Origin: Terriglobia bacterium
GTDB taxonomy: Bacteria > Acidobacteriota > Terriglobia > Bryobacterales > Bryobacteraceae
DNA: 64,000 bases
Assembly: GCA_963777595.1 (NCBI GenBank)
Contig: CAVZRE010000010.1
Span: 174,772 to 238,771, forward strand
Direction: 5' to 3'
Shown here: piece after piece, positions 3,429 through 55,672 of the stretch
How positions within the stretch are numbered: position 1 is the stretch's first letter
Layout: the number at the start of each line of letters is the position of its first letter
Position numbers and translations under genes: made by a program
The notes under the pieces: generated by a model
Database searches by the model: none
What the model was told of the DNA's origin: nothing
Seen by the model: the letters and a program-made list of their open reading frames with translations, nothing else

Positions 3429-3904
3429 GCGGCGCCTCCTTCATTCGCCTTGATTCCGGCAGCCCGGTGAATCGCGCGGCGAATGGTGTCGTAGGTTCCG
3501 CAACGGCAGATGTTGCCTCGCAAGGCTTCATCGATGTCGCGGTCAGTGGGACGTCCGGCTTTATTGAGCAGCGCCACCGCCGTCATGATCTGTCCCGATT
3601 GACAATAGCCGCATTGCGGGACGTCCTCTTCGATCCAGGCCTGTTGCACCGCGCTGGCATGTTGTGCGGACAGCCCTTCGATGGTGGTCACGCTCTTGGC
3701 CTGCACGTTGCCAATCGGCGTCACGCACGATCGGATCGGCTGGCCGTTCAGAAGTACCGTACATGCGCCGCATAAGGCGGCTCCGCAACCAAACTTGGTG
3801 CCGGTCAACCCCAGGGTATCGCGTAACACCCAGAGCAGCGGCATTTCCGGAATCGCGTCGACCGATTCAGACTTGCCATTCAAAACGAACTTCACTGCCG
3901 CCAT
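3425..3904 (-). CDS. (2Fe-2S)-binding small subunit of the Mo-hydroxylase (IorA-like)
   Basis: 159 aa with [12 protein letters not shown] and [14 protein letters not shown] cysteine clusters, characteristic of the double [2Fe-2S] small subunit. The 4-nt overlap with the large subunit implies translational coupling. Confidence 0.9.
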
Positions 3905-3957
3905 ACACTCTCCTGTCTCTGCCTCGTTACTTCGAAGTATAGAGGATGAGGCTTATG

Positions 3958-4494: not shown

Positions 4495-5434
4495 CTAGTT
4501 TGCGCCATACCTGCTGCGGAGTAATCTCGCGCATGCTGCGTGCGATGGAAGCCTCACGTTTATAGGACGTCGCAGCGCCCGGCGAACGAAGCACGTCCAG
4601 CGTACCACCGTAGGGGCCGTTGATGGCCGGATCGGTAGGTCCGAAAATGGCGATGCCCGGCTTGCGCAAAGCCGCCGCAAGGTGCATCGGCCCGCTGTCC
4701 ACCCCAATCACCGCAGTGGCGCGGCGAGTCGCATGGATCAGGCCGGTTAGTCCGCTGAAGTGGGGCCGCACGTGAGATAAGTCGATCTTCACCGATGGCG
4801 CTGCATTGAGCACCAGGGGGATTCCTGCCTCCTTCAGTAGAATTTCGCCCAGTTCATCAAAATATTCGAGCGGCCATTGCTTGCTGCCCCATCCGGCAAA
4901 AGGGCTCGCCAGAATAAAGGGCGAGTCCGGTAATGCTCCTTCGGACTCCCCGGCGGGAATCGGCGACTCATGAGTCAGGATCCGCGCGCCGGCGGCAGCA
5001 GCCAAATCGAGCGCCCGGTCGACCCGATGAATTGAGGAACTGGAAATGGCATCCGTATAAAGTAGCGCCGCCGGACTCTCACGCACTTCTCCCCAAACAA
5101 AGCCGAAAAGCCGTTTGGGATCGGCTAAACGGGCCACCAGCGCCGACTTGATCAGCCCCTGAAAATCGATCGCGCTCCCATACTTCCATTCGCGCAATTC
5201 ACTCCGCGTCGCACTCCACGTCTCCCGCCGCCTCGGCTCTACGCACACGATGCGATCGATGTAAGGATTGCCCCTGAGCAGCGGCGTCCAGACCGGCTCT
5301 ACCACCCAAGCCAGCTTCCGCTCAGGAAAGCTCAGCTTCAGGGACATCGCAGCCGGCAGCGCATGGAGGATATCGCCCATCGCGCCAAGACGAACCACCA
5401 GGATGGCGTTAGACTCGCGAGCGGCTTCGGACAT
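4466..5434 (-). CDS. Glycosyltransferase family 9 (LPS heptosyltransferase, WaaC-like)
   Basis: 322 aa. N-terminal ILVVRLGAMGDILHALPA and C-terminal IGVDSGPMHLAAAL motifs are typical of ADP-heptose:LPS heptosyltransferases. Confidence 0.85.
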   Translation of the reverse strand: MSEAARESNAILVVRLGAMGDILHALPAAMSLKLSFPERKLAWVVEPVWTPLLRGNPYIDRIVCVEPRRRETWSATRSELREWKYGSAIDFQGLIKSALVARLADPKRLFGFVWGEVRESPAALLYTDAISSSSIHRVDRALDLAAAAGARILTHESPIPAGESEGALPDSPFILASPFAGWGSKQWPLEYFDELGEILLKEAGIPLVLNAAPSVKIDLSHVRPHFSGLTGLIHATRRATAVIGVDSGPMHLAAALRKPGIAIFGPTDPAINGPYGGTLDVLRSPGAATSYKREASIARSMREITPQQVWRKLDAQLSKTLR

Positions 5435-5804
5435 GTTCCATCAATTGGCGGGTACGCCCCCGATCCTCTTCTTCGTCCTCCACCGTGACGCTCGCCTGGA
5501 TGGCGGCGAGCACCGGCCCAGCCCCTTCCGGCGAAGGGACCACGTAATCCACGGCGCGCAGCGCTGCAGCCAACTCAGCACGGGCGTCCAGCGGTACGAG
5601 CGGCGACTCGGGCTCGGTCAGGATGACAAACAGCGGTCCTGCGGACGTCGCCGCGAGTTCTTCGAGTTCCTGCACGTGACTGGCGCGCAGAACCTCCATA
5701 TGGGTGACAAACACAACTGGGGCCTCTCCACGGTGACGCGACTCTTCCGCCAGAGCGACGGCCTGGCTGGGCGTAACAATTTTTGAGCGGGTATCGAGAA
5801 TCAA
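5409..5804 (-). CDS. Cytidylyltransferase-like protein resembling HldE/RfaE domain II, with a degenerate active-site motif
   Basis: The ORF-track frame is 5409..5894. I prefer the in-frame TTG at 5804, which overlaps the TGA of the upstream GT9 gene (TTGA). The segment RGEAPVVFVTHMEVLRASHVQEL...LRAVDYVV aligns by eye with E. coli HldE [23 protein letters not shown]...LEAVDWVV. The start is uncertain. Confidence 0.5.
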   Translation of the reverse strand: MILDTRSKIVTPSQAVALAEESRHRGEAPVVFVTHMEVLRASHVQELEELAATSAGPLFVILTEPESPLVPLDARAELAAALRAVDYVVPSPEGAGPVLAAIQASVTVEDEEEDRGRTRQLMEHVRSRSRV

Positions 5805-6820
5805 CGAGTTTTCTCTAATTGGATCAGGGATCCGGCGGATTCGATCACTCGTTCGGCAGTGACAGCTTTCATGCAACGGTGATCGATGGGGCAATCGCGC
5901 TTAAAACACGGACTGCAGTCCGCTCGCTCCAGGACGACGGCATTGTTGGGTCCCGCCGGTCCGGTCGTCTTCGGATTGGTCGCGCCGAACACCGCAACCG
6001 TCGGTACGCCCAGGGCGGATGCCACGTGCATCGCCCCGGAGTCGTTACTCAGAAAGAGCGAACAGGCAGCGGCCAGATTCATGAACTGACGCAAACTGGT
6101 TTTGCCCGCAAAATTGACCACTGGAATCGAACGTTCTTTCAGCGCTTGTTCTACTGCCAGACATTGAGCGGCGTCATTCGAAGCGCCGAACAATGCGACC
6201 GTACCGTTTCGCTGGGATGCCAGGTGGGCAGCGGTTTCGACGAACCGCTCGGGCAGCCAGCGTTTGGCATTTCCATACGCCGCGCCGGGACTGACACCGA
6301 GCACCCAGCCCGTAACCCCCTGCGCGGCGAACTCCTGCTCGCCGTCGCGCGCCGCTTCTGACGCGCATTCCAGAAGGATGTGCCCGTCGGCGCCATGGTA
6401 TCCGTCGATCAGTCGCGCTTCCTGCAGAAGTTCAAGATAGTAGAAGCGTTCATGTACCGACCCCTTCCAGCGCGGCACCGGAATCGGACGCGTCAGAAGG
6501 AACCGCCGCACATCGCAGTCATAGCCTACAATTTGGGGGATCCCGGCCAAACGCAACACCAGCGCTGAATCAAAAGAGTTGGGGAATAAAATGCCCAGAT
6601 GAAACTTACGCTTGCGTAAGGCCTGAGCGGTTTGCCAGCGGCCGTAGTCATAAACAATGACCCTGTTGATACTACTCTCTCGCGCATAAAGATCGGCGAC
6701 GGATCGCCTGGCCAGCAGACTGATTTGGCTCGTGGGATAGTTGGCTCGCACCGCGCGGATCGCCGGAAGCGACATTACCGCGTCGCCCAGCCAATTAGTC
6801 GCTCGTATCAAAATGCGCAT
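5801..6820 (-). CDS. Glycosyltransferase family 9 (LPS heptosyltransferase II, WaaF-like)
   Basis: 339 aa. Carries MRILIRATNWLGDAVMSLPAIRAV and SNDSGAMHVASALGVPTVAVFG motifs. Confidence 0.85.
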   Translation of the reverse strand: MRILIRATNWLGDAVMSLPAIRAVRANYPTSQISLLARRSVADLYARESSINRVIVYDYGRWQTAQALRKRKFHLGILFPNSFDSALVLRLAGIPQIVGYDCDVRRFLLTRPIPVPRWKGSVHERFYYLELLQEARLIDGYHGADGHILLECASEAARDGEQEFAAQGVTGWVLGVSPGAAYGNAKRWLPERFVETAAHLASQRNGTVALFGASNDAAQCLAVEQALKERSIPVVNFAGKTSLRQFMNLAAACSLFLSNDSGAMHVASALGVPTVAVFGATNPKTTGPAGPNNAVVLERADCSPCFKRDCPIDHRCMKAVTAERVIESAGSLIQLEKTR

Positions 6821-6875: not shown

Positions 6876-8165
6876 TTACTTCTCCGGACGAAGCGCTTCA
6901 AGCAACTTCGCTCCGAAAATTGAATCGGGTTTCGCATTCGGAACCGCTGGCGGCCTCGGCGCTACGTGGGCCGGTATCACGGGAGCCGGTCTGGCCGGCA
7001 CGGGCCTTGGTACCGAAGCCTGGGGCTGTACCGGCGGAACCGGCGGCGGAGGGGGTTTGGGAACCGCACTCGCCGGAGTAACAGCCGCCGGAGTAACAGC
7101 CGCCGGAGCTACAGCCGGGGGAGCTACGGATGCCGGAGCAGCCGCCGCCAGCGATCGAGCCGCGGGTGTCGGTTCGGAACATGGAACTGGCTGAACCGGA
7201 GCCGCGGTAGGCTCCAGGAAGAGCTTCTTTCTCAACATCACGCGTTCCAACGCATTGTTGAAACTCGTGAAGGGTCCCGGCGTGTGGTCGCGTTCGAGCA
7301 GGGAGCGGCTGCACTCCATCTTGGAGTCGAGATCGTCAAGGTAATGGAACAGCAGAGCCTCCGGAAACTGCGGGACCTTGGGAGAGCCGTAATCCAGTTG
7401 ACCGTGATGGCTGATAATAATGTGCTCGAGGAGTGTGCGGAGAGGCGTCGGGAAATCCGGAAACGCCCGGATCTTGTCCGCCACAATCCGCATCCCGATC
7501 ATCATATGGCCAAGCAGTTGCCCTTCGGCGGTATACGAGAACCCGCGATCGAAACTCAGCTCCCAAATCTTCCCGATGTCATGCAACACGCATCCCGCAA
7601 TCATCAGATCGCAGTCGATGAAGGGATAGAGCGGGGAAATCGCTTTCGAAAGACGGCAGAGCGACAGAACATGTTCCAGCAGGCCGCTCAAAAAAGCATG
7701 GTGGATCTGCTTGGCTGCCGGTGCCAGCCGGTATCGCCGCGCGATTTCCGGGTCGTCCAGAATGGCGTCCAACAATCCCCGGATATGCGAGCTCGAAATA
7801 TCATTTACGTAGCCCCGGAGTTCTTCCCACATCGCTGCCGGGTCGTGTTTAGAAGCGGGGAAGAAGTCGGTGAAGTCCACCTCGCTATCCGTCAGGGGCC
7901 GCAACCGGTGGATCACAAGCTGGACCCGATTATGATAGATCTGCACCAGCCCCTTGACGCGGACGAAATCATCACGCTCGAAGAGGTTGAGCACCTCGAC
8001 GACGTTGTCCCACATCTTCGCATCGATGTCGCCGGTCTTGTCGCTGAGGATCAGCGATAAATAGGGGTCACCGGTCTTCTTCTGGCGTATTTCCTTGGCT
8101 TGCACGAGCAGCGAAATGGAGGGAGTCGCGTTCTCCGTGAGTTCGCTGATGTATGGGGACTTCAT
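6876..8165 (-). CDS. OB-fold + HD-domain 3'-5' exoribonuclease (YhaM-like) with a Pro/Ala-rich C-terminal tail
   Basis: Start moved to ATG 8165 (MKSPYISEL), because the longer ORF (to 8381) would overlap the surA-like gene. An N-terminal OB fold (LSLILSDKTGDIDAKMWD) is followed by an HD motif (CVLHDIGKIWE). The last ~100 aa are low-complexity P/A/V. Confidence 0.75.
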   Translation of the reverse strand: MKSPYISELTENATPSISLLVQAKEIRQKKTGDPYLSLILSDKTGDIDAKMWDNVVEVLNLFERDDFVRVKGLVQIYHNRVQLVIHRLRPLTDSEVDFTDFFPASKHDPAAMWEELRGYVNDISSSHIRGLLDAILDDPEIARRYRLAPAAKQIHHAFLSGLLEHVLSLCRLSKAISPLYPFIDCDLMIAGCVLHDIGKIWELSFDRGFSYTAEGQLLGHMMIGMRIVADKIRAFPDFPTPLRTLLEHIIISHHGQLDYGSPKVPQFPEALLFHYLDDLDSKMECSRSLLERDHTPGPFTSFNNALERVMLRKKLFLEPTAAPVQPVPCSEPTPAARSLAAAAPASVAPPAVAPAAVTPAAVTPASAVPKPPPPPVPPVQPQASVPRPVPARPAPVIPAHVAPRPPAVPNAKPDSIFGAKLLEALRPEK

Positions 8166-8223
8166 TGAACCGAAGCTCCCGAAAAAAGGCACAGACGTAA
8201 GTCTGTGGTACGTTTTGAGTCGG

Positions 8224-9483
8224 TCATTTCGCTGGGGGTGAGGTTGGGTCCGGCGTGGTTGGCGCAGCGGGAACCGTTGGTGCAGCAGGAGCGGGTGGAG
8301 CAGGAGCGGCGGCCGGTGTCGCAGCGGGTACTGCTTCAGGAGTGGTCTTGCCGCTGAACGGCACGGCAACACCCAGCACATGCTTCTTTTTCTTGGTGTG
8401 TGCGGCGACTTCTTCCTTCGTGGTGGTCTCCGGCTTCAACGTCGCGGGATCCTTCCAGCTGGTATCTTTCCCCGGGGCAGCGCCGCTGTCGACGAAGCCG
8501 CCGCGAATCTGGATAAACGCATCCTCCCGCAGCTTGGTGAGATACTTCCTCAACTCCGGCTGCATTCGGGGAGTGTATAGTTTTTCCATGATTTCGTCTT
8601 TCACGTCCTCGAGCGCCGCCTGGCCGGCCTGGTAATGCTCTTCCACTTTCAGAATCTCGAAACCGACCTTGATCCGGATCGGGTCCGTGATAAAGCCTTT
8701 GTTGGCCTTGAATACCACATCTTCGAGCGGCTTCACCAGATCGCCCTTTTTGTAAGCGCCGAGTTCGCCGTCATTCTTGGCAGTCTCGGCATCGGAATAC
8801 TGCTTGACCAGATCGACAAACTTCTCGCCTTTGCGCGCGCGCGCCGCAATGTCCTTGGCTTTCTTTTCCGCCGCTGCCACCGCGTCCGGACTGCCATCGC
8901 CGGTCGAAATCAGAATCTCCCGCAGGAAGACCTGCTCCTGGCGAACGAAATCGGCCTTGTGCTTGTCGTAGTAATCCTGAATCTCCTCTTTAGGAACATT
9001 GATGTGCGAACCCACCTCCTGGCCGATGACGCGCCGGGTCAACTCGCTGTCCGTCATCTGCTGCTTCCAATCCTCGAAAGTGATTCCGATCTGCTCAAAC
9101 ACCCACTGATGGAACTTGTCGGGATCGGCAATGCCGCTTTGGCCCTGGACTTGCGCGATACGCCGCGTGATCTCCGCGTCGACCTTCACATCCAGTTCTT
9201 TGGCCCGGGCCACCAGCAGCAGTTGATCGATCTTATCGCGCAGCGCGTCGGCTTCGGCAGTCTTTGATTCCTTCGCCAGTTCCTCGCCGCTCTTACCCTG
9301 CTTGCGCAACTCCGTCAGGATGTAGGTGTGCATCTTTTCCAGCTCACCGCGAGTGATGATGTCGCCGTTGACCTTGGCCACAATCTCCTCCACCACCTTG
9401 ACATCCGGCGTGTCGGTCGACGCGGCGGAAAGCATACCGGTAGCCAGCAGCGCCGCAGCGCCGAAAGTATAAATCAAACGCAT
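8224..9483 (-). CDS. SurA-like periplasmic chaperone / parvulin-type peptidyl-prolyl isomerase
   Basis: 419 aa with a signal peptide, a SurA-N-like region (VVEEIVAKVNGDIITRGEL), a parvulin domain (YSDAETAKNDGELGAYKKGDLVKPLEDVVF) and a Pro/Ala-rich C-terminus. Confidence 0.8.
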   Translation of the reverse strand: MRLIYTFGAAALLATGMLSAASTDTPDVKVVEEIVAKVNGDIITRGELEKMHTYILTELRKQGKSGEELAKESKTAEADALRDKIDQLLLVARAKELDVKVDAEITRRIAQVQGQSGIADPDKFHQWVFEQIGITFEDWKQQMTDSELTRRVIGQEVGSHINVPKEEIQDYYDKHKADFVRQEQVFLREILISTGDGSPDAVAAAEKKAKDIAARARKGEKFVDLVKQYSDAETAKNDGELGAYKKGDLVKPLEDVVFKANKGFITDPIRIKVGFEILKVEEHYQAGQAALEDVKDEIMEKLYTPRMQPELRKYLTKLREDAFIQIRGGFVDSGAAPGKDTSWKDPATLKPETTTKEEVAAHTKKKKHVLGVAVPFSGKTTPEAVPAATPAAAPAPPAPAAPTVPAAPTTPDPTSPPAK

Positions 9484-10329: not shown

Positions 10330-10498
10330 TCACCTGACGCAGCAAATTGTGGGCCGGTTTCGAAATGTAGGCGATAGCAGGGTTTTTCCTACCCTCGGAG
10401 TGGCGGATCGGGCACAGGTGTGGGCGGCAGGGGCCGTTTACGGAAGTGTCGCGCCACACCCGGTGAATCTGGCACAATGGAATGAATTGAAGACCCAC

Positions 10499-10575
10499 GG
10501 GCGCGTAGCTCAGGTGGATAGAGCATCGGCCTTCTAAGCCGAGGGTCGCAGGTTCGAGTCCTGCCGCGCCTACCA
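10499..10575 (+). tRNA. tRNA-Arg (anticodon TCT/UCU), CCA encoded
   Basis: Folded by hand. Acceptor GGGCGCG/CGCGCCT (G1-U72 wobble), D arm GCTC-AGGTGGATA-GAGC, anticodon arm TCGGC-CTTCTAA-GCCGA, variable loop GGGTC, T arm GCAGG-TTCGAGT-CCTGC, then discriminator A and CCA. Total 77 nt. Confidence 0.9.
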
Positions 10576-10660
10576 AAACAATCAATTTAGCCGGAGGGAA
10601 CCAGCCGGTGCTATCCAACTCTGACGGGACTGTCGGATCAGGGGACTCGAAAACGTATTA

Positions 10661-10736
10661 GCCGCCGACAAACGCCGTAAACGCCGATCAGAAAGCCGTT
10701 GAGTTCGATTCGCGTTCATCGGCGTTTATCGGCGGC
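10661..10736. repeat. Imperfect palindromic (REP-like) element built from AAACGCCG units
   Basis: Left arm GCCGCCGACAAACGCCG (10661..10677) pairs 16/17 with right arm CGGCGTTTATCGGCGGC (10720..10736). AAACGCCG occurs directly repeated at 10670 and 10679 and inverted at 10720. The element lies about 85 nt 3' of the tRNA. Confidence 0.7.
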
Positions 10737-10807
10737 CATATTCTCTTTTGTATTAACGTCGGCCCCATAGTCCAAGGTGATAAGATTACGGCCGGGCTGG
10801 AGATGAA

Positions 10808-11578
10808 ATGGTCAAAATCAGTCTGTTCGCCATTTTGTTGATGGCAGTACCCTGCCGCGCAACTGTGGTCGTGACATATAGCTTGCCCGCTGTAGGGTCC
10901 TGCAATGATAGCGGCGTATGCATACCCGTCACACAAACTGCCCCATTGACGTTTACCGATAGCGTAGGCGACGTCCTTGCCCTCGCCTACAGCTATTCTG
11001 GCTCGACAGTGGTTTCCGGGCCGTCGTCTCAGAATGACACGATTGGCGCTGCCATTGTCTTTCAGCTTATCGCTTCGGCAACGGAAACGCCTCAAAACGA
11101 GAGTAGCGGCTATTGTTCCGGATTCTGCTTCATCGCCAATTTCAACGTAACAGCAATCCTCGGCGGATGGGTTACGATCTACGGAGCAACTGGGCAGGGA
11201 ACGGCTGTCTGGAGTGACGTTGCTCCGGGGTCGGGTTCCTCTTATTGCCGAGTATACGGTCAGGAATGTAACCTAGAGTTCCCCAACATCAGCCCATTCA
11301 CGTTTGGCGTGCCATTTTTTGTACAGTTCTCCATACTTGAAGACGTCCTTCCAGGGTCCGCTGATCTAATCACCGGCTCTGGAGACATCGGGGATGAAAC
11401 CATCAATACAATCGTCGGTATGACCCCCTCCGTAGTGGACAGCAACTATAATCCGGTTAATGCGAGCTTCACCTTTGTGGCATCGCCCGAACCATCCACT
11501 TGGGGAATCGTCGCAGCGGGGCTCTTTGGGCTGGCGTTCTTTCACAATAAACGCAAGTCGCGAACTCGAATGACCTAA
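10808..11578 (+). CDS. PEP-CTERM sorting-domain secreted protein
   Basis: 256 aa with a signal peptide (MVKISLFAILLMAVPCRA). The C-terminus is SPEPSTWGIVAAGLFGLAFFHNKRKSR, i.e. PEP motif, TM helix, then a basic tail. GC is about 47-48% in sampled lines. Confidence 0.8.
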   Translation: MVKISLFAILLMAVPCRATVVVTYSLPAVGSCNDSGVCIPVTQTAPLTFTDSVGDVLALAYSYSGSTVVSGPSSQNDTIGAAIVFQLIASATETPQNESSGYCSGFCFIANFNVTAILGGWVTIYGATGQGTAVWSDVAPGSGSSYCRVYGQECNLEFPNISPFTFGVPFFVQFSILEDVLPGSADLITGSGDIGDETINTIVGMTPSVVDSNYNPVNASFTFVASPEPSTWGIVAAGLFGLAFFHNKRKSRTRMT

Positions 11579-11705
11579 CCGCTCAGGACCGACTCCACCA
11601 AAGAAGCACTGAGTGTTATCAACCGACCCGTTATATGACAACTCTGCTTCCATAACCGCCCGCTTGTTGTCCGTGGGCGAATACTCGACAGCGTCCGCGT
11701 CGCCA

Positions 11706-12497
11706 CTAAGACGTTCGGCCCAACTGCGACACCGGCCGGTTTTCATTCAACTCGGCACTTTTACGACGCAGTAAAAACCGTGCGCTGAGCAGCAGCAAAA
11801 GCGGGAGCCCGCCTAGAATCCAAGTCGATGGCTCAGGCAAGAGTATCGCTACGGGGGTCACTCCATCTGCTTCATAGAACGCCACATTGTAAGAAAGGTA
11901 TGGTGTCGGCGAGTTATCTCCGAACAGATAGATGCCACTGTTCCCTTCGAGGTCCATGTAGAGAGTTGTTTTGATAGATGCGGCCACACCAAGTTCGAAT
12001 GGAATCACGTTCAATCCACCGGTAAGGCCAGTTAGACTTAGACCATCGTCACTTTCAACGACATCATTACCCGTGGAACCATCGAAGATAGTGTTGTTAT
12101 TTTCTTCAGAGAACTCTACTAAACCGTACCGTACCGGGCCTGCGGTTTGAAACGAAATCGTCTGTGAAGCTTGCAGCTCAACGTATGCTTCACACTCATC
12201 GAACGTGGAAGGCGGGGAAGTCGGGCAAGAGTAATCGGCCTGCGAATACGACGTCCCGATCATGCTCCCCGAGATGGCATTACTGCCTACGATCTGAACG
12301 CTGGCGAAGAATGACGCGGACGCTTGTCCGAATCCTGGATTAGATGCGGAACACCCGCCACTGTCCGTCGAGCCGGATGCCGACATGGAAATTAAGTTCC
12401 CCGTAGTACCGGCACCCGCCGAGCAGGTATAGGTTGTCACGACATCCGCAAAAAGAGAAGTTGCGAGGCAAAAAACTGCGATGAGGATCTTGAGCAT
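11706..12497 (-). CDS. PEP-CTERM sorting-domain secreted protein (paralogue-like, convergent with the previous gene)
   Basis: ATG 12497 gives MLKILIAVFCLATSLFA; the track start at 12515 is a GTG. The C-terminal region carries LPEPSTWILGGLPLLLLLSARFLLRRK. The mature end VVTTYT resembles VVVTYS in the neighbouring gene. Confidence 0.8.
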   Translation of the reverse strand: MLKILIAVFCLATSLFADVVTTYTCSAGAGTTGNLISMSASGSTDSGGCSASNPGFGQASASFFASVQIVGSNAISGSMIGTSYSQADYSCPTSPPSTFDECEAYVELQASQTISFQTAGPVRYGLVEFSEENNNTIFDGSTGNDVVESDDGLSLTGLTGGLNVIPFELGVAASIKTTLYMDLEGNSGIYLFGDNSPTPYLSYNVAFYEADGVTPVAILLPEPSTWILGGLPLLLLLSARFLLRRKSAELNENRPVSQLGRTS

Positions 12498-12922
12498 CTC
12501 TTGCGGCACCTCCACATGCCGCGCAGCCTACGGTTGGCACAAATTGGAAGACGGTTCCTGCCGAGATTGACAGGAAGGGTTCAAGGCGTCGCGATAGGTT
12601 TGAACTATTCTATGCAGTGTTTTTGGCCGGACGCAGCAAGAATACAGATTCTTTTCCTAATCGTTAAAAACGGGTACTATTAGCGAACGCTAACTTACGC
12701 AAAACGCACACCTGAAGTTTGGACCCACTGCGGATACCGCTAGCGCGCCGGGCTAAATGCCTTTCCGCGCCAACCTCCCGCGCCCAAATTTCCCTCACAG
12801 TATCAATCCATCCCCGGCGGATTGCGGATACTTGCACCTTCGTACGAATACCAGTTGCGCGTTCCCGATATAGGCCTTCACTTGTCCAACCGCTATGTTA
12901 GACTTTTGTCAGAAAGGGAAGC

Positions 12923-23965: not shown

Positions 23966-24901
23966 ATGAGACAAACGACAACCTTGTGCGGGTTCCTGAT
24001 CTCGTTTTCGCTGGGTTGCGCGGCCGCGGAACGAGTCGACAATGTTCTGGCGCAGATGGTGCCCCCGGATTCCACCTCGTTGATCGGCATGCGCATGGAA
24101 CAGTTGAAGTCCACCCCGCTGTTCCAGAAACTCATCGCTCAGCAAAAGATCCCGCAAATCGACGACTTCGCGCGGCAATCCGGATTCGATCCCCGGCGCG
24201 ACGTCCGCGATCTGCTGTTCGCGTCCTCGGGTAAACAGACGGTCTTGCTGGCTCGCGGGTCTTTCCATTTGAATGCGCTCGACAAGACGAAAAAATTCAA
24301 TTATCACGGGTTTGTCATTATTTCGAGCACCGGGAACGCGAGCGCGGATTCCCCAAAAGGGCCTGGCGGATTTTGCGTGCTCGATTCCACGCTGGCTGCG
24401 GCGGGATCTTTACCCGCTCTCCAAGCGGCGCTTGATCAATATAAATCGGGCAACCGGCAAAATGCCGCCGCGCTGTTGTCCAAAGCGCGAGCCATTCCGG
24501 AGAATTACCAGATCTGGGGCGTCACCGTCGGGAACGCCAATTTCATTTCCGGAAATCTGCCGGACTCCCCGGGTGGCCCGGACGTGGGCCGCATCTTCCG
24601 ATCGTTGCACGATACCCTTTTCGAAGCGGATCTGCGCAATGGATTAAAAGGACAGGCTGAGGGCTACTGCGCGTCGGCCCAGGATGCCAAGGTGCTCGCG
24701 GACGGCGCCCGCGGCATGATTGGAATGGCGCGACTCAAGACGCCCGACAACCAAACCGATTTGCTGCGCGTGTGGGACGGCATCAAGGTCGTGCAGGCCG
24801 ACCGCAAGATTACTCTTACCGTGGATGTCGGGCAGGATCTCGTGGACGAGGTTTTGAAACTGGTCCAGACAGGGAACGGCCGCCCAAATCCCAATCGATA
24901 G
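23966..24901 (+). CDS. Hypothetical lipoprotein co-transcribed with the ABC exporter
   Basis: ATG 23966 lies 2 nt after the permease stop. Lipobox FSLGC. 311 aa, no family recognised. Confidence 0.6.
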   Translation: MRQTTTLCGFLISFSLGCAAAERVDNVLAQMVPPDSTSLIGMRMEQLKSTPLFQKLIAQQKIPQIDDFARQSGFDPRRDVRDLLFASSGKQTVLLARGSFHLNALDKTKKFNYHGFVIISSTGNASADSPKGPGGFCVLDSTLAAAGSLPALQAALDQYKSGNRQNAAALLSKARAIPENYQIWGVTVGNANFISGNLPDSPGGPDVGRIFRSLHDTLFEADLRNGLKGQAEGYCASAQDAKVLADGARGMIGMARLKTPDNQTDLLRVWDGIKVVQADRKITLTVDVGQDLVDEVLKLVQTGNGRPNPNR

Positions 24902-24940
24902 TCCGTGGGCATTTGTGAGTCATAGTATCGTATTAAGCGG

Positions 24941-25171
24941 ATGGTGACGTGTCCTATTTGCAGAAGCCGGGCCGTTCGGCGCTCGACGCGGCGCAACTTT
25001 GTCGAGCGGCTGCGAAGCTGGGTCGGCCAATATCCCTATCGCTGCTACGATTGCCAGACGCGATTCTTCGCTTTGAGGGTGCCGCATGAAGCGGGACAGA
25101 AGGAACAACAGCCAACCTCTGGCGCAGCGGAGCACGAAGAGGCGGTTCACGACGAAGAAGAAGTAGATTAG
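24941..25171 (+). CDS. Small zinc-ribbon protein with acidic tail
   Basis: 76 aa with CPIC-N27-CYDC, then an E/D-rich C-terminus. Coding status rests on the ORF and motif only. Confidence 0.45.
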   Translation: MVTCPICRSRAVRRSTRRNFVERLRSWVGQYPYRCYDCQTRFFALRVPHEAGQKEQQPTSGAAEHEEAVHDEEEVD

Positions 25172-25487
25172 GCGCCGTGCCCGGTGTGGCTTGTCCTCTA
25201 CAATTGAAAAAAAACCGACCGCGTTTGTAATTCTCCTTCCTGATAAAAACCCTGGCTTTTCCCGTTGAAACGGCGTAAGTGAGCCCGGCCGACAAAGTAG
25301 CTCACGATTCGCGCTAACGGAAAAAATAATGCCAAAAGTATTTCACTCGCACTTCGCACGGCGCTCGTGTCAAACCGCACTATCCGACTAAGTTTCCCGC
25401 TGTTCCTCGCTGGCGAACGCTTCCCGCTGCGTGTAATACTTAACCACAAATCGGGTGAACGGTCGCCTATTTCGGAGGAACTAATTG

Positions 25488-27671
25488 ATGACAATCAGAA
25501 CACTTGTCTATTCGTGCGCGCTTTTTCATAGCGTCCTGCATGCGGGCACCACGGTGCTGTTTCAGCCGTCATTGCCTGCAGTCGGACCCTTTCCAACCAA
25601 TGCACTTACTGTCGCAGCCCCATCGGAAAAAACCGGTATCCAGGTGGCGATGCCGACTTCTTCGTGCGCCAATCCCACGCTCAGCAGCTGCATCAACGCC
25701 CAGTTGCTCAATCAACTGGATGGCTTCAGTGTTAATTCGCAGATCGTGGTTTGTTTTTCCGGACCGGTGCAAGTCGGCACGCTTCAAGCGGCGATGCAAA
25801 TTTATCCCGTGACGAAATCTCCGTCCGGTATCGCAATTAACCAGATCCTTTACGATCAGGCCAGTAATTGTATGTTCGCCAAGCCCGATCAGGTGCTGGC
25901 GCAGCAAAGTCAATATCTGCTCGCGATCACCAATTCCGTGCTGGATGGTTCAGGAAATAAGGTTACAGCCGATCCCGGATTTACCACTTGCCTGAAAGGA
26001 GGAACCACCTATTGCAAAGCTCTTGAGAATGCCGTCTCCGAAGTCGGACTCAACAGCGGCCTGGTCTCGGCCTCATTATTTACAACCATGAGCACGACCG
26101 ATTGGGTCGAAAAAGCCTACACACTGGTTTCGGGCCTGTCATCGCCTGATATCGCGGCGCTGCCCGCCGGAAGCCCGACGCAGTTTTCGCTCTCCCAATT
26201 GTCCGGCATCAGTTGGATTCCGGATTACGGGAAAACCTCCACCGGGGGCGCTCAACCGACCACCCCACAGCCCATCCCGTTAAGCGACCTCTCCGGAGTG
26301 GACAGCGTCGCTTTCGGTCTGTATCTTTCGCCGAATTTCGTCAACGTCAGCGGCCTGCTCGCCGGAATGATTGCCGTGACTCCGACGGGAGGGCCTATCG
26401 CGGGTCCGGTCTCGGTTGGGGCGACCGGCTTCCCGCCCGGCTTTGTGCCCGTCTCTTACCACGTGTTTCTGCCGCCTGCCCGCTACATGCCACCCGGCGG
26501 CTTTCCTGTTGCTATTTACGGCCACGGCCTGGGCGACAGCCAGTTCGGCGCGCCGTCGTTTATCGCGTCGACCCTGGCCTCCGCGGGAATCGCGACGCTC
26601 GCCATTGAAATCCTCGGACATGGTTTCGGACCCGGTGGAACCGTGGAACTCACTTACAAGAACAATCAGGCGCCCTCGTTTGTGTCCACGCCGGGACGAG
26701 GTATCCAATTCTCCACCGCTGCGCCGATCGGTGAGACGGACGGCTGTATTGCACCCGGCGCCATCGGTGTTCGCGACTGCACCCGGCAGTCAGCCGTCGA
26801 CCTGTTTGCCATGGTGAAAACCATTCAGGCGACCAAGGGTTTGGGAGTGGGCCTCAATCCTTCCCGTATTTACTACATCGGGCAATCGTTCGGATCGATC
26901 TACGGCACCTTGTACCACGCCATCGAGCCGGCCTCCAAAGCGGCAGTTCTGAACGTCGGCGGCGGAACTTCCGTTGCGGTGTCGCGCCTGGCTCCCCTAG
27001 GCCGAATTCTCGCCGCGGAATATCTGGGCACGAACAACCCCGTGCTCCTGAATGTGCCGCCGGCCCCCCCTGAACCATATTTCCACGACAGTTTCAACGA
27101 CCTTTACGTCTATCGGAACACTCCGCCGGTCTTGAATTACACCGGCGCCGCGGGAACATCCGTGCTCGCCGTGGACAATGCCCTTGAACTTGCCGATTGG
27201 CTCGATATGATCGGCGATCCGCTGGGCTTTGCCTTCGAACTGCAGAATCAGCAGCTACCGGGACTGATCGGCAAATCGACGCTCGTGCAATTCGCCTACG
27301 GAGATCTCGAAGTGCCCAATCCGACCAATTCGGCCTTGATCCGAGCGGCCGGATTGCAGAGTTCATCGTGGTATTTCCGCTTCGATAAAGCCGCGGCGCT
27401 GCACCCGGAATTGTTGTCGGTAGCCTTCGGATCGCCGCTCCCGGCTCTGCCCCACGCTTACTTGAGCAACCCGACGCTTTTCACCGGCATCGCGGCGGAA
27501 GACTCCATCGCCATCGCCGCGCAGCAGCAAGTTGCGGTCTACCTCGGGTTGGGCGGGCTATTAATCCCGAACCCAAACTGGTTCCTGAACGGTGTCTTCG
27601 CCGGACAAACCTTGTTCGAGATCCCCACTACACTTCCCGAGCAGCTGAACTTTATTCAGATCCAGCCGTAA
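25488..27671 (+). CDS. Large secreted alpha/beta-hydrolase-like protein
   Basis: GGAGGA lies 9 nt upstream of ATG 25488. Signal peptide present. Oxyanion-type IYGHGLGD and nucleophile elbow GQSFGS fall in the middle of a 727-aa protein. The N-terminal ~330 aa are unassigned. Confidence 0.65.
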   Translation: MTIRTLVYSCALFHSVLHAGTTVLFQPSLPAVGPFPTNALTVAAPSEKTGIQVAMPTSSCANPTLSSCINAQLLNQLDGFSVNSQIVVCFSGPVQVGTLQAAMQIYPVTKSPSGIAINQILYDQASNCMFAKPDQVLAQQSQYLLAITNSVLDGSGNKVTADPGFTTCLKGGTTYCKALENAVSEVGLNSGLVSASLFTTMSTTDWVEKAYTLVSGLSSPDIAALPAGSPTQFSLSQLSGISWIPDYGKTSTGGAQPTTPQPIPLSDLSGVDSVAFGLYLSPNFVNVSGLLAGMIAVTPTGGPIAGPVSVGATGFPPGFVPVSYHVFLPPARYMPPGGFPVAIYGHGLGDSQFGAPSFIASTLASAGIATLAIEILGHGFGPGGTVELTYKNNQAPSFVSTPGRGIQFSTAAPIGETDGCIAPGAIGVRDCTRQSAVDLFAMVKTIQATKGLGVGLNPSRIYYIGQSFGSIYGTLYHAIEPASKAAVLNVGGGTSVAVSRLAPLGRILAAEYLGTNNPVLLNVPPAPPEPYFHDSFNDLYVYRNTPPVLNYTGAAGTSVLAVDNALELADWLDMIGDPLGFAFELQNQQLPGLIGKSTLVQFAYGDLEVPNPTNSALIRAAGLQSSSWYFRFDKAAALHPELLSVAFGSPLPALPHAYLSNPTLFTGIAAEDSIAIAAQQQVAVYLGLGGLLIPNPNWFLNGVFAGQTLFEIPTTLPEQLNFIQIQP

Positions 27672-44883: not shown

Positions 44884-46215
44884 CTACTTCCCAATGCAAA
44901 AAGTAGAAAATATGCGATTAAGGATGTCGTCCGCCGTGGTAGCCCCAGTGATGCCATCCAGGGCGTGAAGAGCCCCATACAGATCGAGCAGCAGCATCTC
45001 ATGAGGTATCCCGGTCGACGCCGCGGTGTGCGCCTGCTCCAAAGCCTCCTGACATTCGCGTAGCAGCCGCTCCTGGCGCAAACTGGTGATCAGCCCCGAT
45101 TCTATACCGGCATCCTGGGCTGGGATAATGGCGCGCCGTAATTCGGGAATGCCCTGGCGAGTCTGAGCCGAAACGACGATCGTTCCTGCGGTATCGCGCC
45201 GGGCGGGAAGATCGCATTTATTAGCGGCAATTAGGTAGCGCCCAAGCATCTTCGCGCGGTCAATCAGCTCCGCATCCCGTGCGGACTCCGGCTGCGAGAG
45301 ATCGACCACCACCAGTGTGAGATCCGCGTCGGCCATCGCCTGGTAGCTGCGCTCGATCCCGAGTTTCTCCACCAGCCCTTCGCCTTCTCGGATCCCCGCC
45401 GTGTCCACCAGTCGCACCGGGATCCCTTCGATGGCGGCGACCTCGGAAACCAGGTCGCGTGTTGTGCCGGGTATATCTGTGACTATGGCGCGCTCCTGTT
45501 CGAGTAGCGCGTTGAACAGACTGCTCTTGCCCGTGTTCGGTTGGCCGACAATGGCCAGCGTCAGTCCTTCTGAGACCAGTGAGCCGAATTCGAAGCTGCG
45601 CACCATGCTGTTGACGGCGTCCATCACTGGCCCAAGACGCCGCAGAATTTCTTCGGGCGGAGCGACGCTGATATCGTCCTCGGCGAAATCGATGCCGGCT
45701 TCGAGCAGCGCAATCAGTTCGACGAGTTGCCCTTTCACTGGGGACAGACGGCGCGAGATAGAGCCGTCGAGCTGCTGGACAGCCACCCGGGCTTGATAGA
45801 GCGTCGTCGCGTCGACCAGGTTGCGCACCGCTTCGGCTTGCGGCAAATCGATCCGTCCGTTGAGCAGCGCTCGCAGCGTGAATTCGCCCGGCTCTGCCAG
45901 CCGTGCCCCCGCGCCGATCGAGCGGTCGACACAGGCCCTCAGGATCACCGGCGCGCCGTGACAGGAAATCTCGACCACATCTTCGCCGGTATAAGATCTT
46001 GGACCCTGGAACCAGGTAACCAGCACCTGGTCCAGCGTGTTCCCTTCTTTGTCGGTTAGTTCGGCAAGGCTCGCGATCCGGGGACGCCATGTGTGCGGCC
46101 GGCGAAGGATCTGCTCCACCACATTCCGCGCATTCTTGCCCGAGAGACGGACCACCCCCAGACCCGATCGGCCTGGCGGAGTCGAAAGAGCGACGATATC
46201 GTCGTGAGGATTCAA
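44884..46215 (-). CDS. mnmE: tRNA uridine-5-carboxymethylaminomethyl modification GTPase MnmE
   Basis: TTG start. N-terminus [23 protein letters not shown]1 [15 protein letters not shown]3 DTAG, C-terminal CIGK. Confidence 0.9.
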
Positions 46216-46262
46216 AGCAGAGGTAGAGTAGGCCTTTGGCCTGCGGGTCTCGAATCCATTTT
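46208..46262. repeat. Copy A of a conserved hairpin element (25-nt exact core shared with 49609..49633)
   Basis: The core AGGTAGAGTAGGCCTTTGGCCTGCG (46221..46245) contains the palindrome AGGCC-TTT-GGCCT. It is flanked by GGATTC (46208..46213) and GAATCC (46252..46257), then ATTTT. The left flank overlaps the mnmE TTG start and codons 2-3. Confidence 0.85.
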
Positions 46263-46326
46263 CTCAGCTCCTGAGCAAGCAGTTGCGACGCCGGTAATGC
46301 CTTCCTGAGAACCCTCTCTATAAAGA

Positions 46327-47028
46327 CTATCGCGGCGGCCGCGGACCACGTGGGGGCCCGCCGCGGCGATCTCCACGCCGGTCTCCGCCGCGTCCGCCCC
46401 TGTCCCGATCTCCGCGCGGTGGACCGCCGGCCCGCATTCCGCCGCCATGTCCGCCATAACTTCCGCTGGGACCCTGCCGATGATCACGATAAGCTTCGGG
46501 CCCCGGTTTGGGAGGCTCGGGCAGGCTCGCCATGGATGCCGGATAGACGATTACATGCCGCTGCGGTCCCCACCCCAGGCTTTCACTCCGTACCGCCGCA
46601 TCATTGCGCAGCGCGATATGGATAACCCGGCGTTCCCGGCTGTTCATCGGATTGAACTCGAAATATTGCCCGGTTCTATGAACCTTTTCGGCTGCCGCGA
46701 GAGCGCTCATCCGGAGCTCCTCGATGCGCAGCATCCGGTAGTCGTTGGCGTCGAAGGACAGCCGGCTGTGATCTTCCGACGGAATCGCCAGCGCCTCCAT
46801 TGTCACGTGCTCTAACGCCAGCAGGAGTTCGGCCCGGTTGGCGAGCAGGATATCCACATCCCCTCCGCTGAACCGCACAATCACTTCAGGATTCTCGATC
46901 TCCGGATCCGGAGATGCGCCCGCCGCAATCTCGAATTGCAGGTTGAACCCTCCGTTCTTCAGCACAGGCCGCAGGAACTGATCGATCTTGGGTCCGGTCT
47001 CAGAAAGGGTGTACTTAGCTTCGCTCAA
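46327..47028 (-). CDS. jag: Jag/KhpB-type RNA-binding protein (KH + R3H) with Arg/Gly-rich C-terminal tail
   Basis: Conserved position after yidC. R3H-type FEFNPMNSRERRVIHIALRN. The C-terminus is GGHGGGMRAGGPPRGDRDRGGRGGDRRGDRRGGPPRGPRPPR. The TTG start lies 3 nt after the yidC stop. Confidence 0.8.
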   Translation of the reverse strand: MSEAKYTLSETGPKIDQFLRPVLKNGGFNLQFEIAAGASPDPEIENPEVIVRFSGGDVDILLANRAELLLALEHVTMEALAIPSEDHSRLSFDANDYRMLRIEELRMSALAAAEKVHRTGQYFEFNPMNSRERRVIHIALRNDAAVRSESLGWGPQRHVIVYPASMASLPEPPKPGPEAYRDHRQGPSGSYGGHGGGMRAGGPPRGDRDRGGRGGDRRGDRRGGPPRGPRPPR

Positions 47029-47031
47029 CGG

Positions 47032-48796
47032 CTATTTCCTGTTGTTTTTCTTAGTCACGACTGCAGGGACCGGTGCGTCCGGCTTGGGCATTGCCTTATT
47101 CAATAACCACTGCTGCGCAATCCCCACCAAATTACCAGTGAGCCAGTATAACACCAGCCCGCTCGAAGCCTGATAGAAGATGAAGCCCATCATCAGCGGC
47201 ATCAGCATCATGGTCTTTTGCTGGCTGGGATCGACCGTAGTCATCGGAGTCATCTTCTGCATAATGAAACCGGTGATGACCAGGACAATCGGCAGAATGC
47301 GGATGGCGATCTGCTCGGGCTGGGAAAGATCGCTCACCCATAGCCAGCTCGCGCCCGCGAAGCGCAATCGAAACGGCCAGCACTTTATAGAAAGCGAACA
47401 GGAAGGGCATCTGAATCAGCATCGGGATGCAGCCCGACATCGGGTTGGTCCCGGCCTTCGAATACAGCGCCATCATCTCGGCATTTTTGTCCGCCTGCTT
47501 GGGATCGCGCATCGGCAGCGTTCTTATACTTCTCGTTGATCTTGGCGATCTCCGGCTGCAGCGACTGCATCTTGCGCATGGACTTCAGGTTGGCCAGCTT
47601 CAGCGGGAAGAGGAATAGGTTAATGATCACCGTCGCCGCGATAATCGACCAGCCGTAATTGTGGAACCAGTTATTGTTCATCCAATGCAGCGATATGAAA
47701 CAGCGGTTTGGCGATAATGGCGAACCAGCCGAAATCGACGATGGATTCCAGCTTTGGGATTCAGCTTGCGGAGGGTCTCCGGATCCTTGGGGCCAAGGTA
47801 AAGCGAAAGGCGATTCTCGCCATCGCCTCCCACCGCCAATCCGACAAAGGCTTCTTCGCTGTTGTTAAACGGCGTTTTCGACCTGGTCGTCGAAGATAGT
47901 GGTCTGCAGCGATGGCGTTGCCCGCGGGCAGAAACACCGCGGCAAAATACTGATCCTCCACGCCGACCCATGCGAAAGTGCCGTCCTTCGTCAGCGGACC
48001 GTTTTTGGCGGCTTTCGCATTTCTCGCGATCGATCTTATCCGATGCGCTGTCGTAATAAACTTCGTTCTCCTGCGAAGCTGCGTTGGGCACCGCCATATC
48101 GCCGAAACCACCTCGCCACGCCAGTAGGTGAGGCAGCGGTTGGCCGTTCACCGCCACCGCGGAATCCACCTGAAGAAGATAACTGTCGCGTTGAAATGTG
48201 AATGACTTGCGGGCCGTGACGCCGCCGTTTGTGTATTCGAATGTGACGCCGAGCCCGTCCGGCGATTGCGTCGCCTTGTACAAGGCCTGGTTGAGATCGA
48301 CCGGCGGCTTCGCGTTGCGGAACTGGTACTCGAAAGGATAACCGGCCTTCTGCACGGCCGCGGTATTCACCACATCGAGAGGCTTGCCCGCATGGTCGGG
48401 AAATTTCTTAAGCGTCCAACTCTTCGCCACCCCTCCCCGATTGGAGAAGACCACGCGATACAGATCCGTGTCCAAAGTGACCGCTTCTTCGGAAGACGCC
48501 ATGATCGATCCGGCGCTCGCCGCGACAGGTTCGGCGACTGCCTGGTGCTGAATCCCGGAACTGCCCGCCAGCGGTGTCCTGGCTGCAGCAGGAGTTGGAG
48601 CAGGCGATGCCGGCGTCACGGCGGGATTCTGCGGCGCGGTCGCGGGCTGCTCCGTCTTTTCCGGTACCTTGATGCCGACGGCTTTGTAAAAGTAGGGCGT
48701 GCCGAAGATAACCAGACCCGTCAGTGCGAATGCCAGCAGCATGCGCATGCTGATCGCCGGGTCTTTCGAATCGGGCTTGTTGGGTTCAGTACTCAT
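47032..48796 (-). pseudogene. yidC: Membrane protein insertase YidC, interrupted by seven +1 frameshifts as sequenced
   Basis: YidC-like peptide is spread over ORFs 47678..48802, 47761..48111, 47385..47681, 47132..47512 and 47032..47367, plus two unlisted pieces (LQTTIFDDQVENAV; KLESIVDFGWFAIIAKPLFHI). Synteny is yidD-yidC-jag. See the first finding for junctions. Confidence 0.85.
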
Positions 48797-48798
48797 TT

Positions 48799-49077
48799 TC
48801 AATATGTCTGGCGGAGGTTCTCATTAGAGGTACGGCTGGCGGGGTGGTGGGGTTCAGGCCGCGCCCGCTCGGGTACCGGATCCAAACCGCCTTTATGGAG
48901 GGGATGACACTTACCAAGACGCTTCGTTCCCAACCAGAGTCCTTTCAATACCCCATGCAACTCAATAGCCTGTCGCATGTACTCCGAGCAGGTGGGATGA
49001 AAGCGGCACGCCGACGGCAGCCAGGGGGAGATCAGGATTTTGTAGCCGCGGAGCGCTGCGACACAGACTGATTGCAT
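48799..49077 (-). CDS. yidD: Membrane protein insertion efficiency factor YidD
   Basis: Start at Met 49077. [31 protein letters not shown] is the YidD signature. It overlaps the rnpA 3' end by 46 nt, and its stop is adjacent to the yidC start. Confidence 0.85.
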
Positions 49078-49376
49078 CGCCGAAAGAGCTTCTCGATCTC
49101 CCGTTCCAGATCCTGAAATGGACATTGGGCCAGGGGCCGGCGCGGATTGATGACGATATCCCACGGTGCAATCAGTTCCGCAAACCGCAGGCGCACAACT
49201 TCGCGGACCCGTCGCTTGAGTCGATTGCGAAAAACTGATTTGCCAACCGCTCTTGGCGTCGTAAAGCCAAAACGCGGACACGCACCGCTTCCCGCCAGGC
49301 AGAACGCCGCGAACAACGGTCCGCTGTGACGGAAACCGTTGTCGTAAACTTTGCGGAATTCGCTGGGTCGTAGCAG
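49032..49376 (-). CDS. rnpA: Ribonuclease P protein component
   Basis: The conserved N-terminal motif [20 protein letters not shown] lies upstream of the first canonical start (TTG 49316) in the same frame. The 5' end given here (CTG 49376) is a guess. The body reads ...[23 protein letters not shown]. Confidence 0.7.
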
Positions 49377-49408
49377 CCGGACACGCTTTGGAAAGCCTGC
49401 GATTCTGG

Positions 49409-49558
49409 TTAACCTTCGGAGCTGACGGAGAGCTTCACGCGCCCCCGTGCTCTGCGGCGCGAGATCACCGCACGGCCATCGGCGGTCTTCATGCGGGTCC
49501 GAAAACCGTGGGTTTTCACGCGATGGCGGTTATTCGGCTGAAATGTACGTTTAGGCAT
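49409..49558 (-). CDS. rpmH: 50S ribosomal protein L34
   Basis: [45 protein letters not shown], 49 aa, a textbook L34. Confidence 0.95.
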
Positions 49559-54108: not shown

Positions 54109-54169
54109 AGAGCCCTAACCTCGGTATCATACTCTTATGCCGGCTGCGTCTATCCGGCGTGGAGGATGT

Positions 54170-54610
54170 ATGAAAATGAATCGAATCGTAACGGGTTTAT
54201 TGATTGTTTGCGGCTCGCTCAGCCTGACAGGCGGAGCCTTTGCACAGGATTATGGACGGCCGGGCGCCTCCAATTTTCAAGGGGGTGGCTGGGATCGCGA
54301 CCGGATGATGCATGAGTATCGGACCGCCTTCTACGATCGGCTACAAATCGATCTGGATCGTGCCGAGCATGCTCGCTATCTCTCCGGTGGCGATTTCAAA
54401 CGCTTTGACAGGGCTCGCCATGAGGTCGGGGAGTTCGCTGCCAAGTGGTCCCGAGGGATCTTCGATCCGCACGAGATGGACAACGCCATCGCCTCGGTTC
54501 AGCGAGTGGCCGAAATCCCCTCGCTGCATCGCGAAGACCGTGACGCCTTGTTTCAGGACCTCGCTCGCATGCGCAGTTTCCGCGCGCATATGGAAGGCCG
54601 CCGCTACTAA
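54170..54610 (+). CDS. Hypothetical secreted protein
   Basis: MKMNRIVTGLLIVCGSLSLTGGAFAQ signal peptide. GGAGGA lies upstream, so ATG 54176 is equally possible. The mature part is charged and helical. No family recognised. Confidence 0.55.
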   Translation: MKMNRIVTGLLIVCGSLSLTGGAFAQDYGRPGASNFQGGGWDRDRMMHEYRTAFYDRLQIDLDRAEHARYLSGGDFKRFDRARHEVGEFAAKWSRGIFDPHEMDNAIASVQRVAEIPSLHREDRDALFQDLARMRSFRAHMEGRRY

Positions 54611-54629
54611 AAACAGCGTCGTTCGACAA

Positions 54630-54663
54630 CAGCCTCGCCGGCTGAACCAATCCGGCGAGGCTG
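54630..54663. terminator. Strong hairpin between convergent genes (putative bidirectional terminator)
   Basis: CAGCCTCGCCGG-10 nt-CCGGCGAGGCTG, a perfect 12-bp stem. No immediate T tract on either strand. Confidence 0.5.
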
Positions 54664-54676
54664 CGTCACTTGACTC

Positions 54677-55672
54677 TTACTGGACCTTCTTGGACCACGG
54701 TTTGGCCGACTTGATGGCTTCGTTGACAGCGTTGATATTCTTCACGCCTTCGGTTGCCAGCCAGTCTTCTAGAGCATGAACGCCCTTCTTGGCATATACC
54801 GGAATGCCTTCTTTCCACGTTGCGCGGCCGCACAGCACTCCTGAATAGTCGGTGCCCGATTCGGACGCCATGTTCAGCGACTCGATAAATTGCGCGTTGC
54901 TGACACCGGCGCTCAAATAGATAAACGGCTTCGACGCGACGGAAGCAGCCTTCCGGAACAGGTGCAAGGCCTCTTCCCGCGTGTACGCCTTCTGTCCCTT
55001 GTAAACGCTGCTTCCCTCCACATACTCCGCGTTGATCGGAACTTCCACCTTCAGGATGTCCACTTTGTATTGCGGCTTGGAAAACTCCATCATCGCGCCC
55101 ATGACGACGTCGGGCTTCTTCTTCGCGAATTCCAGCCCTTTTTCGTCTCCACCAGCCGGATCGTAGCCGACGAATTCCAGGAAGAACGGAATGTCGTTGT
55201 CCACGCACTCGGAACCAATGCGTTCGATAAAGGCATGCTTGATATCGTTGACGCCAGGTTCGTCGAAAGGCGAATAGTAGATCAGGATCTTGACCGCATC
55301 CGCGCCCATGTCCTTGATGCGTTTTGCCGAACAGTGAGGCAGCAGGTCAGGCAAGCGCCCAGGCTGAGTGTTGTCGTAACCGCTCTCTTCGTAAGCGAGT
55401 AGCAGGCCCGCGTTGGACGAACGCGCTTTTGCAGCGGGAAGTCCCCACTGAGGATCGAGGAGAATGGCGCTGGCATGCGGCGTCAGAACCTTTGACACCG
55501 CAATCTTGAACTCTTCCATCATCGCGTCTGGAATCTCTTTTTGCGGAACGCCCTTGGCAGAGGCGAGCGACTTCTGGAGGCTTCCACGCTGATCCATTGC
55601 CGCGGCGGCGATAACTCCGTCCTTATTGGACAGAGCTTGCATGTGCTTCAACTTACCGGCTGATAAACTCAT
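54677..55672 (-). CDS. lacD: Tagatose-1,6-bisphosphate aldolase (class I, LacD family)
   Basis: Aligns by eye along its length with staphylococcal LacD (ALSNKDGVIAAAAMDQRGSL; AILLDPQWGLPA; GLLLAYEESGYD; FIERIGSECVDNDIPFFLE; YIYLSAGVS; GVLCGRATW). Confidence 0.85.
   Translation of the reverse strand: MSLSAGKLKHMQALSNKDGVIAAAAMDQRGSLQKSLASAKGVPQKEIPDAMMEEFKIAVSKVLTPHASAILLDPQWGLPAAKARSSNAGLLLAYEESGYDNTQPGRLPDLLPHCSAKRIKDMGADAVKILIYYSPFDEPGVNDIKHAFIERIGSECVDNDIPFFLEFVGYDPAGGDEKGLEFAKKKPDVVMGAMMEFSKPQYKVDILKVEVPINAEYVEGSSVYKGQKAYTREEALHLFRKAASVASKPFIYLSAGVSNAQFIESLNMASESGTDYSGVLCGRATWKEGIPVYAKKGVHALEDWLATEGVKNINAVNEAIKSAKPWSKKVQ

Follow-up and report, generated by a model that had tools for sequence, protein, structure and literature searches.

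In long-read (Nanopore) assemblies and MAGs, single-base indels split conserved genes into adjacent ORFs, and comparison with orthologues repairs them. The yidC locus in the 64-kb stretch of Terriglobia DNA analysed here (hereafter the window) resembles these errors in both respects, and the insertion-biased error spectrum found in the ENA accession series of its closest relative is a further likeness. The locus departs from them in that the damage was limited to ~670 bp within a single gene, the rest of the 64 kb being clean, and in that the best repair of at least three sites removes a base outside any homopolymer; the textbook Nanopore error miscalls the length of a long homopolymer. True pseudogenes, as in Mycobacterium leprae and in recently host-restricted symbionts, also present a frameshifted conserved gene with intact flanking genes. 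Their lesions, however, are a mixture of deletions, insertions and nonsense changes accompanied by relaxed dN/dS, whereas the lesions of yidC in the window were +1 only, at a dN/dS of 0.044. With prfB-type +1 frameshifting and with the transcriptional slippage of endosymbionts the locus shares the prospect that an out-of-frame essential gene could still yield a full-length product. Such recoding depends on long poly(A) tracts or on a conserved slippery site combined with a stop or hungry codon, is limited to one event per gene and is shared by orthologues; the yidC of the window had none of these features. We put at roughly 0.88 the probability that the seven extra bases in this gene are consensus errors in the deposited assembly and not mutations of the organism, so that the broken frame would not be a real biological feature.

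Frame and repair of yidC

The gene for the membrane protein insertase YidC (47032-48796, minus strand) lies between yidD (48799-49077) and jag (46327-47028). Three-frame translation of the minus strand divided the YidC-like peptide into eight frame segments, with phases in the order 1>0>2>1>0>2>1>0. Relative to intact orthologues, the locus carried seven extra single nucleotides, at ~48019, 47912, 47879, 47755, 47696, 47519 and 47353, all shifting the frame in the same direction. Global nucleotide alignment with the intact orthologue L002, the gene for P0001, required exactly seven 1-nt gaps in L002 and 0 in the window; the same alignment contained two in-frame indels in the variable N-terminal linker, before the seven 1-nt gaps. 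The intact JGI contig L022 provided a second orthologue supporting sites 3-7, and an alignment of 12 sequences supported all seven. The seven same-direction +1 shifts and the phase order that the earlier note had read from the letters were thus recovered by translation, by the alignments with L002 and L022, and by the 12-sequence alignment.

Removal of 7 nt from the 1765-nt locus left 1758 nt, or 585 codons plus a stop, with zero internal stops, in agreement with the uninterrupted corrected frame that had been calculated before. The repaired protein aligned to P0001 (584 aa) with 100% coverage and 83% amino-acid identity. In silico removal of the bases followed by searches with the YidC HMMs, a check that the earlier note had proposed, regained both Pfam domains end to end: PF02096 (60KD_IMP) was matched over 1-163 of 163 positions (E = 1e-55) and PF14849 (the YidC periplasmic domain) over 2-281 of 283. 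In the deposited ORFs, by comparison, PF02096 was split over three, in the complementary pieces 1-52, 48-89 and 92-163. Comparison with orthologous loci, also proposed there, found the intact orthologues in frame at all seven sites. The gene order rpmH-rnpA-yidD-yidC-jag-mnmE of the window was the same in L002, L025 and L026. Judged by its sequence, the repaired gene encodes a normal YidC/Oxa1 family protein, of the Gram-negative type with a periplasmic P1 domain, and lies in its canonical neighbourhood.

Placement of the seven extra bases

Every single-base deletion that restored the frame was scored against the 30 closest homologues. At site 1 (48018-48022; this and all other sites on the minus strand), the best fix was deletion of T 48019, giving DREKAKAAK; deleting an A of the AAA run gave DRENAKAAK, and the residue in question was K in 19 and N in 5 of the 30 homologues. 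Site 2 (47911-47915) was best fixed by deletion of T 47912, which gave FLPAGNATLQTT, identical to P0002 and P0004; the repair reads FLPAGNA[T/S]LQTT. At site 3 (47875-47882), deletion of C 47880 or G 47879 scored best and gave DDQVKTPFNN, whereas a fix in the AAAA run gave E at a position that is K in 29 of the 30 homologues. Any deletion within site 4 (47752-47759) yielded KLNPKLESIVD. The context there changes from CCCAAGCTG to CCCAAAGCTG, and the change is most likely AA to AAA in CCCAAGCTG, as far as the letters allow. Site 5 (47695-47700) gave PLFLSLHW when A 47696 was deleted and PLFISLHW when the deletion was taken from the TTT run or was that of C. The best fix at site 6 (47518-47522) was deletion of G 47519, a base outside any run, giving KYKNLPMRDP. 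At site 7 (47353-47356), the window has CGCGGGCGCG where relatives have CGCGGCGC or CGCGGGGC, and repair gave LRGASWLWV.

Expansion of a run therefore fits sites 4 (AA to AAA) and 7 (GG to GGG), sites 1 and 5 are ambiguous, and at sites 2, 3 and 6 the best-scoring fix removes a base outside any run. The earlier note had stated that each junction can be healed at a short homopolymer. Such deletions did restore the frame; they were not the best fix at sites 2, 3 and 6 when scored against the 30 homologues, and fixability at a homopolymer carries little weight in any case because short runs are too common. Two of its junctions also had to be moved by ~10 nt: the second, which it had put in a GGG run at ~47921-47928, belongs ~10 nt further downstream at 47911-47915, and the third, which it had put at 47867-47869, belongs at 47875-47882, in DDQV[K]TPFNN.

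The hexamer CGCTGC (GCWGC-type) was found 1-3 nt downstream of sites 2, 5 and 6, with the plus-strand GCAGCG at 47515, 47687 and 47906. It thus adjoined three of the seven sites (uncorrected P = 1.5e-4), and GCTG was near five of the seven, an association that was borderline after correction for ~250 k-mers. The window contains 113 copies of CGCTGC, mostly without error, and on this ground we rejected the hexamer as a sufficient cause of the insertions. Sites 2 and 5 have the 9-mer ATCGCTGCA in common. Retention of both alleles of a strain SNP was also considered as the origin of the extra bases; it fits most sites, but their placement is too free for this fit to decide the matter, and we set the idea aside.

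The surrounding 64 kb

Across the 64 kb, rapid same-strand switching of the reading frame occurred only in yidC, as judged by a six-frame codon-usage Viterbi scan trained on the long ORFs of the window. The scan recovered six of the seven yidC switches, and the other same-strand frame changes that it reported were ordinary stop/start boundaries between genes. The comparison with L002 also took in 10.7 kb of neighbouring orthologous sequence, in nine genes or blocks of genes (rpmH, rnpA, yidD, jag, mnmE, ferredoxin (fer2), a pyridine-nucleotide reductase, the 576-aa and 97-aa genes, a NUP-family gene and an M16 peptidase), and all of their indels were multiples of 3. By our own calculation, the chance that seven events would fall inside 667 nt of ~56 kb of coding sequence is ~2e-11. 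A split Pfam domain was found in none of ten further suspicious ORFs, which contained whole domains or had no match; the candidate frameshift regions examined (3425-6820, 6876-9483, 11366-12515, 24664-25494 and 54137-55672) gave the same result. That the rest of the window is free of frameshifts, as had been reported from inspection of the sequence, holds as far as the Viterbi scan, the nine neighbours and the Pfam searches of short ORFs extend. The 64-kb window contained no second yidC.

The genes on both sides of yidC, all on the minus strand, were intact. On one side, yidD (48799-49077) encodes 92 aa and had zero indels relative to its orthologue, rnpA (49032-49403) occupies one continuous frame, and rpmH, for ribosomal protein L34 (49409-49558), is undamaged. 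On the other side, jag, which encodes an R3H protein (46327-47028), is intact, and an independent Logan contig encodes the same protein and matches the window exactly over 1,470 nt; mnmE (44884-46215) encodes 443 aa, the length of its orthologue, and had zero indels.

Several features of these neighbours bear on annotation. A frameshift in rnpA was considered and rejected, the gene having a single continuous frame collinear with that of L002. Between the rpmH stop and the conserved N-terminal motif of rnpA there was no ATG, GTG or TTG (49401-49411, minus strand), and the rnpA of L002 (~9395-9410) is likewise without a canonical start. A candidate for a non-canonical start is the ATC at 49403-49401, which follows GAAGG; a mechanical ORF call, beginning at the TTG at 49316, cuts the protein short. 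The public call for yidD is a 160-aa ORF (P0125; 48799-49281, minus strand), whose N-terminal 68 residues are encoded over rnpA in a different frame from that gene. The deposited YidD protein looks over-extended, with the conserved YidD part beginning at 49077. The C-terminal tail of Jag (46327-46500, minus strand) is Arg/Gly-rich and of low complexity (…GGPPRGDRDRGGRGGDRRGDRRGGPPRGPRPPR), and codon statistics favour another frame there. We consider the tail real because it is kept in L002 and L022 and because the protein is identical in the independent Logan contig.

Elsewhere, ARAGORN and Rfam searches found a single RNA gene in the window, a tRNA-Arg (anticodon TCT) at 10499-10575 on the plus strand, in the gap 10330-10783. 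At 24664-25494 on the minus strand, three short ORFs in different frames (98, 113 and 110 aa) overlap within a 650-nt stretch that had neither coding signal nor Pfam match and is probably an intergenic region.

Origin of the extra bases

The earlier note had offered three explanations side by side without choosing among them: a consensus or polishing artefact, very recent inactivation with a second yidC copy as backup, and deliberate disruption. The evidence gathered here backs the artefact. The frameshifted fragments P0121 and P0122 (372 and 98 aa) are exact NCBI and ENA entries from a 259,794-bp contig, so that the extra bases were not a later addition to the window. The Logan contig L001 (run ERR11523676), an independent k-mer assembly, was 100% identical to window positions 45680-47149, including jag and the last 118 nt of yidC. 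It stops at 47149, 200 nt short of site 7, and so neither supports nor contradicts the extra bases. A break this near the cluster would fit a drop in coverage, or branching between strain variants, at the margin of the affected stretch. Further searches for a same-species copy of the yidC region returned relatives at best. A protein search with the region of junctions 1-5 gave distant fragments only, and one with the C-terminal region gave P0138 and P0139, on contigs of other species at 82-83% nucleotide identity. JGI metagenomes were scanned twice for exact patterns spanning sites 7 and 4, with 0-2 bases permitted at the junction, and gave no match; an exact look-up of rpmH gave none either.

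Among GTDB genomes, the closest relative was Terriglobia bacterium MFD01716.bin.2.1 (contig_45929), a soil MAG of the Microflora Danica (MFD) series. MFD MAGs are Nanopore-only and were assembled with Flye followed by one round of Medaka (PMC12313526). Frameshifts driven by indels are a recognised weakness of Nanopore consensus sequences (PMC9262707, PMC12007338), and low coverage and heterogeneous populations are the settings in which consensus indels occur most often (PMC9262707, PMC12007338, PMC12313526). In three contigs from the same ENA accession series as the closest relative (L004, L005 and L023, from ERZ25039470, ERZ25039554 and ERZ25039507), yidC contained 11 one-base insertions against 3 deletions, and the genes adjoining yidC were fragmented as well. 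At that fraction of insertions, seven out of seven is unremarkable (P ~0.2). This weakens an argument of the earlier note, that unidirectional insertions are unusual by comparison with the mixed lesions of pseudogene decay; the contrast with such decay stands, but assemblies of the same series are themselves biased 11:3 towards insertions. The yidC gene was also split in L025 and L026 (ERZ25039546 and ERZ25039484). In these MAG contigs, of 2.58 Mb and 642 kb, a single extra base lies near the VGGD motif (~4960-4975 in L025, ~4985-5000 in L026), and the context in L026, GTCGGG[C]GTG, resembles that of site 7 in the window, CGCGGG[C]GCG. One-base indels in yidC were found neither in the short-read JGI contigs L022 and L024 nor in the MFD MAG contigs L006 and L017.

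Some positions recurred between assemblies. The extra base of site 4 was also present in L023 (4930-4990), within a 57-nt run identical to 47717-47773 of the window, although the two sequences were only ~83% identical outside that run. L023 had a further extra base at the codon boundary of site 2. The extra base of site 7 was present in L004 (~4810), from a more distant species, at the same position (CGCGGGCGC). Shared ancestry does not explain this sharing, because L023 resembles the intact L002 more closely (85%) than it does the window (82%). The recurrence of sites 4 and 7, and of a position near site 2, across the assemblies of different species suggests systematic or mixed-population errors of the consensus. 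On the sequences compared, independent real mutation at the same positions would be far less likely than a consensus error that depends on context or population.

We believe that the window derives from a long-read soil MAG, probably Nanopore-only and assembled with Flye and a single Medaka polish, as suggested by its closest relative and by its neighbours in the accession series. The yidC of the cell itself would then most likely be intact, with 585 codons. Over ~670 bp the consensus would have been locally poor, spurious single bases would have been written into it, and gene callers would subsequently have divided yidC into fragments. The clustering may have had one of several causes. Reads from co-occurring related strains or species may have piled up in mixture over a conserved gene, which would fit both the 57-nt block common to the window and L023 and the break of the Logan contig just outside the region. 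Alternatively, a local failure of coverage or polishing may have left near-raw sequence (7 errors in 670 nt, or ~1%), or miscalls may have been context-specific. Two observations speak against an artefact: seven errors in 670 bp beside ~63 kb that appear clean would be unusual even for such assemblies, and homopolymer error, the classic Nanopore mode, fits some of the sites only.

The best of the other readings, though one we regard as improbable, is that the deposited frameshifts are seven true +1 insertions in a very recent pseudogene, with a second YidC/Oxa1 paralogue elsewhere in the genome supplying the insertase function. Some bacteria do carry two YidC paralogues, and the deposited sequence is indeed frameshifted; within the 64 kb, at least, a second yidC is absent. 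The gene would have been dead after the first shift, and six more insertions would then have to have accumulated without a deletion, a nonsense change or a rise in dN. Bacterial indel spectra are generally biased towards deletion, and the repaired frame contained no stops, deletions or other decay. Compared with L002, dN/dS of the repaired gene was 0.094 over its whole length and 0.044 in the frameshift region, at dS of ~1.0; the latter is comparable to the constraint on jag (0.019) and mnmE (0.047). The insertions are unlike neutral drift because seven neutral indels should bring many more substitutions, mostly non-synonymous, and none of these was evident. The relaxed selection and mixed lesions of a pseudogene were thus both absent, the lesions being +1 insertions only. 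In addition, yidC is intact in all close relatives, and the same sites are affected in error-rich assemblies of other species.

More doubtful still is that the extra bases are real and that yidC in these soil Terriglobia has genuine hot spots of +1 insertion, with sites 4 and 7 hit independently. If this were true, it would point either to a mutational process with sequence specificity or to tolerance of the insertions through a recoding mechanism so far unrecognised.

Recoding of real frameshifts, by programmed +1 ribosomal frameshifting or transcriptional slippage at all seven sites to give full-length YidC, strikes us as very improbable indeed. It would accommodate the single direction of the seven shifts, the perfect YidC that correction yields and the recurrence of three positions in other assemblies. 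Yet the shifts share no slippery motif that survives correction for multiple testing, they coincide with no stop or rare codon and no long homopolymer, and out-of-frame reading past site 1 stays open for 115 codons. The sites are absent from orthologues at 80-85% nucleotide identity, the set of sites varies between assemblies, and contigs with sites in common have breaks in many further genes. To our knowledge, seven recoding events in a single bacterial gene are without precedent. Deliberate disruption, by engineering or by edits to the window, is equally hard to credit: a regular series of single-base insertions, all in one direction, could give an essential gene the look of design, but the exact fragments were already public on the 259,794-bp contig, the organism belongs to an uncultured soil lineage of Terriglobia, and assemblies of other species share the type of error and two of the sites.

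If consensus error is the right explanation, the locus shows how a dense pocket of indels, 670 bp long at ~1%, can sit in an essential single-copy gene of a high-contiguity long-read MAG while the surrounding 60 kb look clean. Such pockets lead to false pseudogenes and to protein databases inflated by fragments, of which P0121 and P0122 are already public, and pockets that recur at the same positions across species could pass for conserved biology. The seven corrected positions allow yidC to be repaired. For the organism itself the biological weight of the finding is small, as it almost certainly has a normal yidC; should reads bear the extra bases out as genuine, the organism would have lost the only yidC in view, which would be notable.
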